Sequence record: NC_010324.1
DNA length: 64,000 nucleotides
Strand: one strand, 5' to 3'
Origin: Escherichia phage phiEco32
This document shows positions 25,979 through 36,372 of the stretch, piece after piece (position 1 is the first letter of the stretch; the number at the start of each line of letters is the position of its first letter). The notes below the pieces were generated by a model that saw nothing but the letters and a program-made list of their open reading frames with translations, did no database searches and was not told where the DNA came from. The translations under genes and the position numbers were made by a program.

Positions 25979-27823
25979 TTAGTGTGTATGCATCCAGTTA
26001 AGTCCAATCTGACAATCAGATGCCAGAGGACATTCCATGTTCAGATACTCGCCAGCTTTCTTAACACAAAGCTCAGTGTGCTCTTTGAGTTTCTGTACAT
26101 CATTACGGTTTACTGAGAATTGACCTTCATCGTGCATATCAATTACCTTAGCACAACGAACCTTATCTTTCTCAATCCACTTGTTAAGGAACATCATAGC
26201 ATATTTCATAACAACAGCACCAGCACATTGCAGGAGTGTGTTAAGGGCTTTATGAACCATAACCTTACCAGTGGCATCCCGTCTCATTGTAATCTTACGA
26301 CCATCAACTCCAATCAAGTATCCTTGAGCAGCTTTCTCTGTCATACGATCGATGAGGATTGCAATACATGGGTTCTCTGCTAAGAAACGTGCTCGCATCA
26401 CTGAACCTTCGTCAGCCCCACCACCTACAATTGAACCAAGCTTAGCATCGCCAGCACCGTAGTTGAATGCATAGATAAATGTCTTAGCGTTGTCACGAGT
26501 AGGAAGACCAGCAAGTTTCTGGTTGTGGGAGTGGATATCACCTTCAAGGAGAATATCACGATACATAATAGCAGAAGCTAAACCACGTTCTGCCAGAGCT
26601 TTCTTAGCTGGGTTGTTCTCTTCAATTGCCTCAGCAAGCATATCCCTACACTCTTTAATGAGGTAGTGAGCGAGCATACGAAGTTCCAGTCCAGAACCAT
26701 CATACCCTAAGAATACTTCTTTACCAGCGGGTATGTAATATTTGTAAGCGCCTACAGGTTTGTCTTTCTTCCCCGGCTTACCTTTCTCGTAAATTACGTT
26801 AGTACCTTTTCGTATATAACAACCATCAGGAACAACGTTAGTAATAACGAAAGGACGAGAGTGATCACTGTCTGAGTTATAGTCAGACTCAAACAGACTG
26901 CGACACTCGTGACCAAACAAACCACGGGAGGGAATATTAACCACGATACGATGTTTGAATCGAAAAGTTGGCGTAGCGCAGCTGTTAGCTTCTGCCGAAA
27001 GTTTACCATCTTCGCGTTCCTTTGCTATGAGTCCACTGATAAGACCTAGCCTGTGAGCCGCTACAACGCGTCTCTTAAGCAAACTTCCAACACTCCCTAG
27101 TTCACCCCCTAGCCCTTCTTCAAGAGTCTCCTCGAGGTTTGTAGGAGCTGTAGGCCACTTGTTTGATGTGGCTAATGCTTTCTTAATCTCATCAAACGTT
27201 ACAGGATTACGGCGATTAGGGTTCAATCCCAAACCAAACACGTAAGCTTTCATGTAGTTCTTAGTTTTAAACCTGAAGTGCTTTTCTAAGAACTTCTTAA
27301 TATCAGCGTCAACCATCTCGGCTGTCTGCTTTTGCTTAGCATTGCCTCGCATCCAAGCAGTATACCATGCTTGGTATGTTCCATACTTTCTCATATCTTT
27401 CTTAATTTCGAAAGTATTCCAAGGCTTCTTAGATACGTTAAACTCTGGAGGAAGAAAGCCCTCATCCATAAGAGCTTCTTTAACTCGTGCATCCTTCGAT
27501 GGGTCAAAGTCTACATATTCGACACAGGTGAAAGCTCCACCAATGTCTTCTCTCTTCAGTCCAACCCTATCACAATAAGCTTGAGGCCACTTCTGCAAAG
27601 CCCCTGACTTCTTAAATGGCTTCATGTAAGTAGAGCCATCTAATCTCATCTTAGGTAAGAGAGGAATCAACTCTCTGTCAATATTAACAATAATCTCTTT
27701 AAGGAGGTGAACATACCACCGAGCATTTCTTCGGTTGAAACTCACTCCGTGCTTTGCTTGCTTAGAGATTATATCAGCGACAGTCATCTCTGTCAAAAAT
27801 GGAAGAGCGTCCGGGTTGCTCAC
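25979..27823 (-). CDS. family-A DNA polymerase, polymerase domain only
   Basis: 614 aa; motif A LGYDGSGLELRMLAHY, motif B KTFIYAFNYGAGDAKLG, motif C VIDMHDEGQF; no exonuclease motifs in this ORF. Confidence 0.85.
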   Translation of the reverse strand: MSNPDALPFLTEMTVADIISKQAKHGVSFNRRNARWYVHLLKEIIVNIDRELIPLLPKMRLDGSTYMKPFKKSGALQKWPQAYCDRVGLKREDIGGAFTCVEYVDFDPSKDARVKEALMDEGFLPPEFNVSKKPWNTFEIKKDMRKYGTYQAWYTAWMRGNAKQKQTAEMVDADIKKFLEKHFRFKTKNYMKAYVFGLGLNPNRRNPVTFDEIKKALATSNKWPTAPTNLEETLEEGLGGELGSVGSLLKRRVVAAHRLGLISGLIAKEREDGKLSAEANSCATPTFRFKHRIVVNIPSRGLFGHECRSLFESDYNSDSDHSRPFVITNVVPDGCYIRKGTNVIYEKGKPGKKDKPVGAYKYYIPAGKEVFLGYDGSGLELRMLAHYLIKECRDMLAEAIEENNPAKKALAERGLASAIMYRDILLEGDIHSHNQKLAGLPTRDNAKTFIYAFNYGAGDAKLGSIVGGGADEGSVMRARFLAENPCIAILIDRMTEKAAQGYLIGVDGRKITMRRDATGKVMVHKALNTLLQCAGAVVMKYAMMFLNKWIEKDKVRCAKVIDMHDEGQFSVNRNDVQKLKEHTELCVKKAGEYLNMECPLASDCQIGLNWMHTH

Positions 27824-27839
27824 TTTATACTCCTTTAAA

Positions 27840-28253
27840 TTATTGGTAAAGTAAATCTGTAAATGCTTGGTTATCTTCTACTACATCCAAGGATGTGGAA
27901 TCAACAGCATATGTTCTCATTGCTGCATTTGTTTGTGCCCAAGTAGGTGGAGAATAAGAAGACCTAACCTCACGAGGCTGCTCTCTGACTAGATGGGCCA
28001 CAACTCTCTGATTAGCAACTTCTTCTCTTTCTCTAATAGCTCTCTGGATATAGGCCAGCTTCATGCCCCAAGCTTCTTCAAACTCTTGAGGATGCTTATC
28101 ACTGATAACCACATACTGACGTTCAGGAATACCAGAGCGAATCTCTGATAATAATTCATGGAACAAATCTAGTTCATGTTCAGTGAGATTCATTTCAATA
28201 TCATCCCACTTGAGAACTAAGAAACGGTTTTGGTGTCTAGCTGGTAATGGCAT
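27840..28253 (-). CDS. hypothetical protein
   Basis: 137 aa; GAGGTGGAG RBS lies in the 3' end of an upstream 52-aa ORF. Confidence 0.4.
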   Translation of the reverse strand: MPLPARHQNRFLVLKWDDIEMNLTEHELDLFHELLSEIRSGIPERQYVVISDKHPQEFEEAWGMKLAYIQRAIREREEVANQRVVAHLVREQPREVRSSYSPPTWAQTNAAMRTYAVDSTSLDVVEDNQAFTDLLYQ

Positions 28254-28416
28254 CCTACTCCACCTCTACTTCAATGTAAGTTCTCTCGCCAACATCGTCT
28301 TTTAAGACCCATGACTTGGCATCTTCTTCCGACTTAAAAGCTTTCACAACGCTGTATCCGCCTTCCCATTCATCACCGAACCAGCGCTGTCCTACGTAAA
28401 TGTATTCTTTCATCAC

Positions 28417-34490: not shown

Positions 34491-34499
34491 TCTTATTCC

Positions 34500-35813
34500 T
34501 TAGTTATTTTCGTCTATTTCAAAAGAGATTCCACGACCCGCTTCATCGGCAAACCGAACTGTACGGGTTTGAGGTTCTAATACTTCAGGGTTGTTGGCAA
34601 TAAAGCGATCAGCGAGATTATCTACCACATCTTGGGCCACACCTTCATCAGTCCACACAGCCCTAACAGGTGCGTTGATATCACCAACAGCAAAACCCTG
34701 ACCAGAGAACTGGTGACGGCTAACAGTCAAACCGTTTGGTCGACCACGAGAAGGACTAGCCATCCATCGCTCCATAGAATCACTTGTAATACCCCAAGCT
34801 TCTTCAAAAGATGTTCTACGAGTAGGGCTTACTCTTCGTGACTCTTGTGCTCTACGCATTGCAGGGGCTACAAACACCCCTTCAATTGCATTATGTCGGT
34901 TAGGTTCCTCTTCTCGACCAAGCAGATCACCACCCGTGTTAGTTGTTAAATTTGTCAACCCTTCAGACCAATACGCATGAATCTGACCAGAACCGTGAAG
35001 ACTAGACATAATCTGAATCTCTTCATAAGGGATTCCAAAGAATCGACTCATGTCTCGGTCAACACAATACGAGGGACTTGTCGTATCCTCAGCATAAGTA
35101 ACCTGACCCCGTTCATCAACCAGATGATTAATCGGTTGAGGTGTAGGGAGGTACCGAGAGTGGGCCATATATTGGAGCGCAGCGGATGTAGAGGAGAATC
35201 TCAACACCTGTGAATTAGGCCACTTCTTATGAACATACTTAATTTCACGAGCAGAGACAACTACTGGACAAGGAGAAGTCATAGACAGATATCCATGAGG
35301 GGTCATAAATAGATTGTCAAGAGTCATCGCACCACGGCACATCATAGGAAAATTATCCATAACCTCTTCAATAGAAGTAGGATAATTAAACATGAATTGG
35401 ATTCGAACCCCATTCCACTGAAATTCAATAATATCAGTGAATGTTAACAAAGAGCCTTCAGCGTAGGCTTCATTTGTGGCTTCAGCCAGAAGGGAAGAGT
35501 ACTCAATATCTTGAGACTCAAGCCACTCTTTCACGTTACTTTCAACCTCTCGTCCGAGATCTTGCCACTGGTCATGGCGGATAAAGGTATCTCGAGTTCT
35601 TGGTGCCTGTCCTCTGACAATAAAGATATCAATGTCATGAGGTGCTCTATTATTAAGAACAGCATCACGAACAGCCCCACCAGTGATGATGGGACAAATA
35701 CAGTCTGGAATCAAGTTGTTGTTAATCAACTGTTCAATGAAGTGACGACCAACAGTGATATCAGGTTGTTGAGCAACCTTATCTTCAATTCGGTTAATCG
35801 GGATAACAATCAT
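34500..35813 (-). CDS. Pol-beta-type nucleotidyltransferase with CCA-adding/poly(A)-polymerase-like head motif
   Basis: Start set to ATG 35813 (MIVIPIN...), 1 nt after the exonuclease stop. Head-domain motif ITGGAVRDAVL...HDIDIFIV (GGxVRD...DxD). Confidence 0.5.
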   Translation of the reverse strand: MIVIPINRIEDKVAQQPDITVGRHFIEQLINNNLIPDCICPIITGGAVRDAVLNNRAPHDIDIFIVRGQAPRTRDTFIRHDQWQDLGREVESNVKEWLESQDIEYSSLLAEATNEAYAEGSLLTFTDIIEFQWNGVRIQFMFNYPTSIEEVMDNFPMMCRGAMTLDNLFMTPHGYLSMTSPCPVVVSAREIKYVHKKWPNSQVLRFSSTSAALQYMAHSRYLPTPQPINHLVDERGQVTYAEDTTSPSYCVDRDMSRFFGIPYEEIQIMSSLHGSGQIHAYWSEGLTNLTTNTGGDLLGREEEPNRHNAIEGVFVAPAMRRAQESRRVSPTRRTSFEEAWGITSDSMERWMASPSRGRPNGLTVSRHQFSGQGFAVGDINAPVRAVWTDEGVAQDVVDNLADRFIANNPEVLEPQTRTVRFADEAGRGISFEIDENN

Positions 35814-35814
35814 T

Positions 35815-36372
35815 TTACATTTTCCAATATAATGAAGGTGGGTCGTAAGGGTCGAATCCTGTGAGTTCACACAAGAAAAGATAAACCTTAACAGTTAAGT
35901 TAACGTCCTGTTCACAATAAGTAAACATATCTTCAGTGAAAGCATCCCATGCTTCCTCTTGCTCACCATAATCGCCCTTAAGCTCTCCTAAGAACTCACC
36001 CCACTGCTTCAAACCATGACCTCTTGGGCCACGTCTAGGGTCGCCTTTCGGATACTCAGGACTGTCACCAATACGGTCAGGTTTAAGATATCGACTAAGA
36101 CATAAAGTGTCAAAGACGTTAAAATGATAGTTGATTAAAGAGGGATACATCTTCTTCAGAGCTGGTAAGTCGAAGTCAATAATATTATGACCTACGAGCA
36201 CATCAGCTTCTGTAAGTTTACGAATCCCATCTTCAATTTGGTGAGGCCGATAGCCCCACCTTTCACCAGTTTCAACATCAAAGATGTAAATACACCATAC
36301 TTTAGTTATGTCATCGTACAGTGCATTACTCTCGATATCGAATGCAAACACTTTCTTCTTTTTCTTTACCAC
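35815..36372 (-). CDS. DnaQ-like 3'-5' proofreading exonuclease (PolA-type), separate gene
   Basis: 185 aa; Exo [10 protein letters not shown], Exo [11 protein letters not shown], Exo III YCEQDV. Confidence 0.8.

Follow-up and report, generated by a model that had tools for sequence, protein, structure and literature searches.

In phage T7 the polymerase and 3′-5′ exonuclease activities reside on one chain of 704 aa, gp5, which acts together with E. coli thioredoxin and gp4. The E. coli Pol III core is built in another way, with alpha (DnaE) and epsilon (DnaQ) as distinct chains that together work as a single proofreading enzyme. More than one ORF for a family A phage polymerase has been reported in a marine cyanophage lineage and in the OM43 phages MEP401/402 (bioRxiv 10.1101/325100; PMC10580990). 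In MEP401/402 it is the polymerase domain itself that is broken, for which an intron was proposed by the authors (PMC10580990).

That exonuclease and polymerase are encoded in two genes is already known from the literature as a feature of the whole clade, in phiEco32/Kuravirus, 7-11/Privateer-type and LUZ24-type phages alike, a status that was missed in an earlier note made from the phiEco32 sequence. It was stated explicitly for phage tf in 2012 (PMC3517423) and for phage YF01 in 2023 (PMC9965538), and a passage of the tf paper credits the phiEco32 split to Savalia 2008 (PMC3517423). Public records already use a label of this kind for the small gene; the RefSeq name of LUZ24 gp25 is “DNA polymerase exonuclease subunit”. 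Here, the two genes were followed in a stretch of 64,000 nucleotides of Escherichia phage phiEco32, a Kuravirus (NC_010324.1; the window), where, in place of the single T7 chain, there are two chains of 185 and 614 aa, referred to below as Exo and Pol.

The polymerase gene

25979..27823, minus strand: exonuclease-less family A (T7 gp5-type) DNA polymerase subunit, 614 aa (PF00476, T7 gp5 and SU10_051 matches)
26678..26701, minus strand: Pol motif A, D375-R382 (DGSGLELR); D375 aligns to T7 D475
26456..26497, minus strand: Pol motif B, R443-G456, RDNAKTFIYAFNYG; R443/K447/Y451 align to T7 R518/K522/Y526
26126..26134, minus strand: Pol motif C, H564-D565-E566, aligning to the T7 HDE motif
27149..27433, minus strand: clade-specific thumb-region insertion, Pol residues ~131–225, helical in the model (column occupancy)

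The Pol ORF has a GTG start with an AGGAG ribosome-binding site, and the only Pfam match of its product is PF00476 (DNA_pol_A; 83.1 bits against a cut-off of 34.3, residues 361–611). The best match in the PDB is T7 gp5 (E 1.2e-32), and the identity to the SU10_051 “DNA polymerase” is 99.7%. Membership of family A follows from the PF00476 match above the gathering score, motifs A, B and C, and a predicted right-hand fold of thumb, palm and fingers similar to that of solved family A enzymes. The catalytic carboxylates of motif A are D375 and E380; D375, motif B and motif C are each conserved in 77/77 of the alignment rows covering the polymerase. No exonuclease domain was found in the 614 residues by Pfam, by the T7 gp5 alignment or by comparison with fused relatives. 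The earlier note had described this ORF as having motifs A, B and C and no Exo motifs, and Pfam and the T7 alignment bear this out; Exo motifs in the N-terminal part of the product, which it had said would speak against its reading, were looked for and are absent.

All exonuclease and polymerase catalytic residues are common to T7 gp5 and phiEco32, including the tyrosine equivalent to T7 Y526. Compared with T7 gp5, phiEco32 Pol has three insertions (approximately residues 131–225, 321–365 and 391–415) and a shorter segment where T7 carries the thioredoxin-binding domain (TBD); this segment can be aligned with the T7 TBD, falls about 30 aa short of its length and has a well-ordered structure in the AlphaFold2 (AF2) model. 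The polymerase gene of phiEco32 is uninterrupted, whereas that of LUZ24 is interrupted by a group I intron carrying an endonuclease VII gene, and in that of FH3 an HNH gene is accompanied by a weak group I intron signal.

The exonuclease gene and its junction with the primase-helicase

35815..36372, minus strand: stand-alone DEDDy 3′-5′ exonuclease subunit, 185 aa, GTG start (PF01612, T7 gp5 alignment, equal to SU10_075)
36331..36339, minus strand: Exo I motif, D12-I-E14, aligning to T7 D5/E7
36169..36189, minus strand: Exo II motif, H62-N63...D68, aligning to T7 H59-N60..D65
35905..35919, minus strand: Exo III motif, Y152-x3-D156, aligning to T7 Y170..D174
36366..38156, minus strand: primase-helicase resembling T7 gp4, 596 aa, next to exo on its upstream side (Pfam: DnaB_C, and Toprim weakly)
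36366..36372, minus strand: GTGGTAA, in which the primase-helicase stop and the exo start overlap (from the sequence itself)

Exo matches PF01612 with 36.4 bits (cut-off 23.6), and its best solved relative is T7 gp5, of which residues 3–178 align to Exo residues 10–160 (E 2.4e-13). It is placed among the DEDDy (DnaQ-like) exonucleases by this match together with an Exo I motif of the form DxE, an Exo II motif of the form Nx2-3[FY]D and an Exo III motif of the form Yx3D. The Exo I motif is found in 52/52 exonuclease rows, as are N63 and D156, while D68 is kept in 51/52 and Y152 in 50/52. Because the DEDDy residues are thus retained in 50–52 of the 52 rows, the stand-alone Exo is under selection and, judged by its residues, very likely still an active nuclease. 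The separate 185-aa gene in which the earlier note had seen Exo I, II and III does encode a complete DEDDy exonuclease and, as was also claimed, lies directly downstream of the primase-helicase, with stop and start overlapping. The same overlap is seen in EP335. It suggests that the translation of primase-helicase and exo is coupled, and the primase-helicase is a possible partner of Exo. A primase-helicase gene upstream, and a 5′-3′ exonuclease encoded as a separate gene, are features that phiEco32 shares with T7.

The block between exo and pol

27824..35814, minus strand: variable block between exo and pol, about 20 ORFs, 7,991 nt (Pfam)
31859..32134, minus strand: phage thioredoxin, 91 aa, CAPC motif (PF00085, E 2.1e-13)

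Both ORFs lie on the minus strand of the window, which the earlier note did not mention, and 7,991 nt separate the exo stop from the pol start, in agreement with its figure of about 8 kb. Its statement that nucleotide-metabolism genes fill this gap holds for dCTP deaminase and ThyX and not for the remaining ORFs of the approximately 20. Pfam identifies, besides these two, CCA-nucleotidyltransferase-like, ferritin/Dps-like, thioredoxin and PhoH proteins, and one more is like the N-terminal domain found in NAD-dependent ligases (Nlig-Ia-like); many small ORFs are without known function. The phage thioredoxin might, as a hypothesis only, be a candidate processivity cofactor for the polymerase, an idea published for phage Privateer (PMC7881722). 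Exo and pol both belong to the replication/nucleotide-metabolism cluster on the same strand, and their co-expression is plausible because the phiEco32 polymerase and nucleotide-metabolism cluster has been reported as middle-class (PMC8948821).

Position of the break and its distribution among relatives

When Exo is joined to Pol, the two are colinear with T7 gp5, the junction falling at T7 residues ~208/209 and the first Pol residues aligning to approximately residue 209. The T7 gp5 alignment, which had been proposed as a way to fix the domain boundaries, places the split exactly at the exo/pol boundary of a T7 gp5-type enzyme. In six fused relatives the exonuclease domain runs directly into the position of Pol residue 12, and hence no sequence is missing at the break. 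Exo and Pol each have their own ribosome-binding site and start codon.

Among the 120 Pol homologues that match best, 114 have no exonuclease domain, and where their N-terminus is complete it begins at the same point. Conversely, the Exo homologues found are stand-alone in 65/65 cases, with lengths of 101–247 aa. A look at relatives, suggested by the earlier note, thus shows that the same split recurs. The order primase-helicase, exo, variable block, pol is found in Kuravirus, Nieuwekanaalvirus, Grimontviridae, Lahexavirus, Bruynoghevirus (LUZ24) and Lyrsu02, and the split arrangement on one strand is present in phiEco32 and eight relatives. In SU10 the gene order is the same over a longer stretch (GATase, ATP-grasp, GGCT, primase-helicase, exo, variable block, pol). 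Primase-helicase and exo are adjacent in SU10, EP335, SE131, J3S, LUZ24, Ab22 and Lyrsu02, and separated by one small ORF in LAh_8. The block measures 1,927–9,582 nt in relatives, approximately 2 kb in LUZ24-type phages (2,343 nt in LUZ24) and 8–10 kb here and in Aeromonas phages, with 8,634 nt in SU10. Compared with the other Kuravirus and LUZ24-type split replicases, phiEco32 has the same system and differs in the length and content of this block.

In a neighbour-joining tree of a limited sample, built without support values and with T7 as the outgroup, the six fused proteins are sister to all 70 split polymerases, and phiEco32 Pol lies inside this split clade. Since the fused proteins are sister to all of the split ones, a single fission would be the simplest history. 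The thumb-region insertion follows the same division: its core (residues 171–220) is carried by 70/70 of the exo-less polymerases sampled and by 0/7 fused relatives, with a column occupancy of 0.44–1.0 in the 70 split-clade proteins and 0–0.14 in the 7 fused proteins.

Structure models

AF2 applied to the joined Exo-Pol sequence gave a model with pLDDT 93.9 and pTM 0.88, with low confidence at the junction only and the insertion helices at 322–422 of the concatenated chain. A Foldseek search with this model returned full-length T7 gp5 as the top PDB match (E 2.7e-35), followed by Klenow and Bst; the target-normalised TM-score against T7 gp5 is 0.72–0.79, only a little higher than a match of the polymerase domain by itself could give. 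In a permuted construct (pol, a 30-aa Gly-Ser linker, exo), for which the input alignment held split-lineage sequences only, pTM was 0.87 and disorder was confined to the linker. As the permuted construct still gave this value, the models support a docking of Exo that does not depend on the end-to-end join, and, as predictions, they support the placement of Exo and Pol in one complex. The T7-like docking is not independent evidence, because T7 gp5 and Klenow structures were part of the AlphaFold2 training data.

Origin of the split and alternative explanations

Exo and Pol are probably the halves of one ancestral T7 gp5-type polymerase that now form a non-covalent, two-subunit proofreading enzyme. 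The ancestral replicative polymerase gene would have broken exactly at the exonuclease/polymerase domain boundary; the exonuclease half would have stayed beside the primase-helicase gene, as in the T7 order of gene 4 then gene 5, and the polymerase half would have moved downstream while a block of accessory genes built up between the two. The 185-aa exonuclease would then bind the 614-aa polymerase non-covalently and rebuild the T7 gp5 architecture, so that a mispaired primer end could shift from the polymerase site to the exonuclease site inside one complex. We infer this physical complex, and proofreading within it, from the gene and structure comparisons; a separate proofreading subunit would agree with the public annotation of the small gene and with the AF2 models.

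The location of exo and pol in separate genes 8 kb apart would also fit a free 3′-5′ exonuclease that proofreads in trans, trimming mismatched ends after the polymerase dissociates and forming no stable complex. This is unlikely, as both AF2 constructs give a confident relative placement of the domains (pTM 0.87–0.88), and the C-terminal segment of Exo and the N-terminal segment of Pol, which in T7 and the fused relatives link the two domains, are retained. Also unlikely is a different main partner or role of Exo (the primase-helicase, or recombination, repair or end processing), which would leave the polymerase without a dedicated proofreader. The start of exo overlaps the stop of the primase-helicase gene, no other feature of the locus is as conserved as the adjacency of these two, while the exo-pol distance varies five-fold, and the tight coupling of exo to primase-helicase rather than to pol is equally compatible with such a partner. 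However, a primase-helicase followed by a polymerase exonuclease domain is also the T7 gene order, so common descent would by itself place the two side by side; how the two genes meet differs from relative to relative (they overlap, are 9 nt apart or have an ORF between them), and Exo is most closely related to the exonuclease domains of T7-like polymerases rather than to repair nucleases.

Phages commonly encode stand-alone DEDD exonucleases, which leaves some room for an exonuclease-less polymerase that acquired an unrelated DnaQ-like exonuclease independently, with no gene ever having been split. We regard this as improbable. T7 gp5 is the best match in sequence and structure, and the best solved one, for both halves; the halves line up colinearly with T7 and the fused sister proteins, and neither loss nor overlap is seen at the junction; every lineage examined has them on one strand with the N-terminal half first; and their identity to phiEco32 declines in parallel across relatives (exo 49% and pol 46% in SE131; exo ~33% and pol ~39% in LUZ24-type phages). 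The mobile insertions within pol of LUZ24 and FH3 might bring to mind a joining of exo and pol after transcription or translation, by a giant intron or a split intein, or else a frameshift fusing exo to the primase-helicase, and the earlier note had named splicing or an intein as what would undo its reading. Of this there is no sign. The LUZ24 and FH3 insertions are at motifs B and C and not at the exo/pol break, and approximately 20 independent genes separate exo and pol; T7-homologous sequence covers all 185 + 614 residues and leaves no space for intein halves, no Rfam intron was found within 25500..37000, and each ORF has its own start signals. At the primase-helicase/exo junction no slippery site was found, and the exo frame is closed by a stop 17 codons upstream of the exo start. 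Any such joining is extremely improbable.

Significance of the split

On the reading of Exo and Pol as two subunits of one proofreading enzyme, phiEco32 would resemble the Pol III core in having the polymerase and a DEDD 3′-5′ exonuclease on separate chains. The likeness would be a functional analogy, as Pol III alpha is of family C, unrelated to family A, and its arrangement did not come from the fission of a Pol I-type gene. In contrast to MEP401/402, phiEco32 has its break at the exo/pol boundary and its two halves separated by about 20 genes. The split adds little beyond housekeeping. As a natural two-piece T7-type polymerase, it would be convenient for examining the role that the exonuclease-polymerase tether plays in proofreading, and it could possibly serve as an enzyme to which proofreading is added or from which it is omitted.

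It is conceivable, though doubtful, that the split was accompanied by a structural adaptation, in which the thumb insertion docks the detached exonuclease, or else has the phage thioredoxin or the acidic primase-helicase tail as its binding partner. If this were so, the exonuclease would be exchangeable, and the amount of Exo relative to Pol, and hence the fidelity of replication, could be tuned.

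The split polymerase genes

The two parts of a T7 gp5-type enzyme are encoded in phiEco32 by separate genes, a family A polymerase gene (pol) and a DEDDy 3′-5′ exonuclease gene (exo). The features below are listed in the direction of transcription, which goes from the high coordinates to the low:

38156..36366 (-), primase-helicase
36372..35815 (-), exo, 185 aa
about 20 ORFs
27823..25979 (-), pol, 614 aa

The polymerase (Pol) shares 99.7-99.8% identity with the DNA polymerases of SU10, YF01, Bas90/91 and many other Escherichia phages, which are Kuravirus of the subfamily Gordonclarkvirinae, phiEco32-like podophages with the C3 morphotype. 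Its sole Pfam match is PF00476 (83.1 bits against a cut-off of 34.3, residues 361-611), and its closest relative among PDB sequences is T7 gp5 (E 1.2e-32). D375 of motif A is aligned to T7 D475, R443, K447 and Y451 of motif B to T7 R518, K522 and Y526, and H564-D565-E566 of motif C to the T7 HDE; none of the catalytic residues varies across 77 rows. The ORF thus carries motifs A, B and C and no Exo motifs, as had been read from the sequence in the earlier note. AGGAG lies 7 nt upstream of its GTG start.

The exonuclease (Exo) matches PF01612 with 36.4 bits (cut-off 23.6), and its residues 10-160 were aligned to T7 gp5 residues 3-178 (E 2.4e-13). Exo I (D12, E14), Exo II (N63, D68) and Exo III (Y152, D156) are intact in this separate gene, where the earlier note had placed them. 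Of the 52 exonuclease rows, which include both stand-alone and fused proteins, every one has D12, E14, N63 and D156, while 51 have D68 and 50 have Y152, and because the catalytic residues are so conserved, the alignment argues for a maintained catalytic function of Exo. The gene was also correctly located directly downstream of the primase-helicase, whose stop codon overlaps the exo GTG in GTGGTAA, with GGAG 8 nt upstream of the GTG.

In EP335 (locus L010, 3664..4170), the public exo annotation begins at an internal codon and leaves out Exo I; a start 39 nt further upstream, at the conserved GTG that overlaps the stop codon of the primase-helicase (CCGTGGTAA), restores the FDIE motif. The C-terminus of the window's primase-helicase is an acidic tail whose last residue is aromatic (36366..36470, minus strand; ...GASPW). 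In this it resembles T7 gp4, whose acidic, Phe-terminated tail binds gp5 and is the subject of PDB 6p7e.

Position of the break and alternative readings

Placed end to end, Exo and Pol are colinear with T7 gp5 by alignment, and the C-terminus of the one and the N-terminus of the other meet at T7 residues ~208/209, so that the comparison suggested in the earlier note puts the break at the exonuclease/polymerase domain boundary. In six fused relatives of ~600 aa (Pol homologues P0173, P0175, P0179, P0180, P0181 and P0184), the exo domain ends at residues ~147-170 and the polymerase part, from residues 164-181, starts opposite residue 12 of the query Pol. Nothing is lost and nothing duplicated at the break. 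From the exo stop to the pol start there are 7,991 nt, in line with the ~8 kb estimated before.

The split would be only apparent if the two ORFs were joined by splicing or an intein, possibilities that the earlier note had raised. Intron joining was rejected because Rfam, run over 25500..37000 at E≤1, gave no intron; an intein was rejected because T7-homologous sequence accounts for both proteins fully and, with nothing missing or duplicated at the break, there is no space for intein halves. A frameshift fusion of exo to the primase-helicase was considered as well, but a stop codon interrupts the exo frame 17 codons ahead of the GTG, and a slippery heptamer is absent, so this fusion is without support. 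The reading of the Pol N-terminus as a degenerate exo remnant was also rejected: Pfam at E≤0.01 gives PF00476 alone, by alignment the segment corresponds to where the T7 polymerase domain begins, and the structural model predicts it as thumb helices.

Distribution and gene order in relatives

The split proved to prevail among relatives, a point that the earlier note had proposed to check. In a search of 5.8 billion proteins, all 65 Exo homologues were stand-alone (101-247 aa). Among the best 120 Pol homologues, 114 have no exo domain and only the six named ones are fused, and the exo-less proteins with a complete N-terminus all begin at one common point. In a neighbour-joining tree (468 polymerase columns, T7 as outgroup, no support values), the six fused proteins group as a clade that is sister to the whole set of 70 exo-less polymerases; one ancient fission would be the simplest reading.

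Annotated phages share the arrangement primase-helicase, exo, variable block, pol, with gaps of different lengths.

Distance between exo and pol in phiEco32 and related phages
Ab22: 1,927 nt
Lyrsu02: 2,130 nt
LUZ24: 2,343 nt
J3S: 4,758 nt
SE131: 6,772 nt
EP335: 7,830 nt
phiEco32 window: 7,991 nt
SU10: 8,634 nt
LAh_8: 9,582 nt

Since the T7 order is gene 4, then two small genes, then gene 5, the exo half has probably stayed in the ancestral position, with accessory genes accumulating at the break.

Some relatives (P0079-P0082, P0145-P0169) have a further break within the pol gene, and it falls in the best-conserved motifs: the products stop close to residue 450 in motif B (about 20 homologues) or close to residue 564 in motif C (several). 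At motif C of FH3 (L009, 2223..2796), an ORF for an HNH endonuclease is found along with a group I intron signal, which is weak (E 0.004). In LUZ24 (L003, 10129..10766) there is a group I intron (Rfam E 1.7e-7), together with a gene for endonuclease VII. No such interruption is present in pol of the window.

A perfect sigma-70 consensus with extended -10 (TTGACA, 17 nt, TGATATAAT; 12/12 matches) lies within pol at 27768..27796 (-), codons 9-19, 27 nt downstream of the start codon. It is unique in the 64-kb window (0.01 expected by chance), identical in SU10 and FH3, degraded in EP335 to a -35 of TTAACG with the extended -10 kept, and missing in the more distantly related SE131, LAh_8, J3S and Ab22. 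It could serve as an internal promoter, or else follow from the conservation of the encoded peptide FLTEMTVADII.

A modelled Exo-Pol complex

AF2, whose training data included T7 gp5 and Klenow, was applied to exo and pol placed end to end, using an alignment of 112 rows in which exo and pol were paired by genome in 10 rows, fused in 7 and unpaired in others. The model reached a mean pLDDT of 93.9 and a pTM of 0.88, low confidence being limited to the junction block (residues 181-190, pLDDT 62). In a Foldseek comparison with the PDB, full-length T7 gp5 chains rank first (E 2.7e-35), with target-normalised TM-scores of 0.72-0.79 (best 5ikn_B, rmsd 4.6 Å). To control for proximity forced by the join, exo was placed behind pol and a 30-aa Gly-Ser linker in a permuted construct, which was modelled with split-lineage rows alone in the alignment and judged by pTM; it gave a pLDDT of 91.8 and a pTM of 0.87, with disorder confined to the linker. 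Because such a pTM is hard to reach with 22% of the chain unplaced, AF2 predicts that Exo and Pol form a defined complex. No biochemical test of this complex was found in the literature. The polymerase/nucleotide-metabolism cluster of phiEco32 was reported to be middle-class (PMC8948821), in keeping with co-expression of exo and pol.

Three insertions, at pol residues ~131-225, 321-365 and 391-415, distinguish the polymerases of the split clade from seven fused proteins; no published description of them was found. The core of the first (171-220) is present in 88-100% of split rows versus 0-14% of fused rows. Its alignment to T7 residues ~370-402 places this insertion where the thumb descends, and the AF2 model predicts it to be helical; it might, speculatively, relate to holding the detached exonuclease.

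Neighbouring genes

The block between the halves had been described as nucleotide-metabolism genes, which by Pfam holds for part of it and not for the rest. Features within and around it include:

31859..32134 (-), phage thioredoxin (CAPC motif), within the exo-pol gap
34500..35870 (-), ORF directly after exo, likely true start the ATG at 35813
38376..40495 (-) and further upstream, glutamine amidotransferase, ATP-grasp (RimK-like) and gamma-glutamyl cyclotransferase block ahead of the primase-helicase
18528..19370 (-), separate FEN-like 5′-3′ exonuclease gene

Within the thumb, Pol residues ~45-105 can be aligned with a portion of the thioredoxin-binding domain of T7; the segment is ~30 aa shorter and is well ordered in the predicted AF2 structure. 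In Privateer, the phage thioredoxin was proposed to act on this polymerase as a processivity factor (PMC7881722).

The ORF after exo matches the poly(A) polymerase/CCA-adding head domain only weakly (E 0.0022, under the Pfam cut-off); its SU10 counterpart is annotated as a nucleotidyltransferase-domain protein, and SE131, J3S and LUZ24 have no counterpart at that position. The FEN-like product reaches 26.3 bits for Pfam 5_3_exonuc_N, under the cut-off of 34.3, and its SU10 counterpart is annotated as a 5′-3′ exonuclease. As pol, exo and the FEN-like gene are separate, all three Pol I activities lie on separate polypeptides in phiEco32. The amidotransferase/ATP-grasp/cyclotransferase block, found whole or in part also in SU10, J3S, LUZ24/Ab22 and Lyrsu02, ties together the replication modules of otherwise distant phage groups.

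Meaning of the split

The observation of separate pol and exo genes is confirmed, and its interpretation in the earlier note as a split polymerase is supported. The split is already known and typical of the clade, and RefSeq and GenBank name the small gene "DNA polymerase exonuclease subunit". With the detached exonuclease, Pol would probably build a T7 gp5-like holoenzyme, in which the clade-specific thumb insertion might take part.
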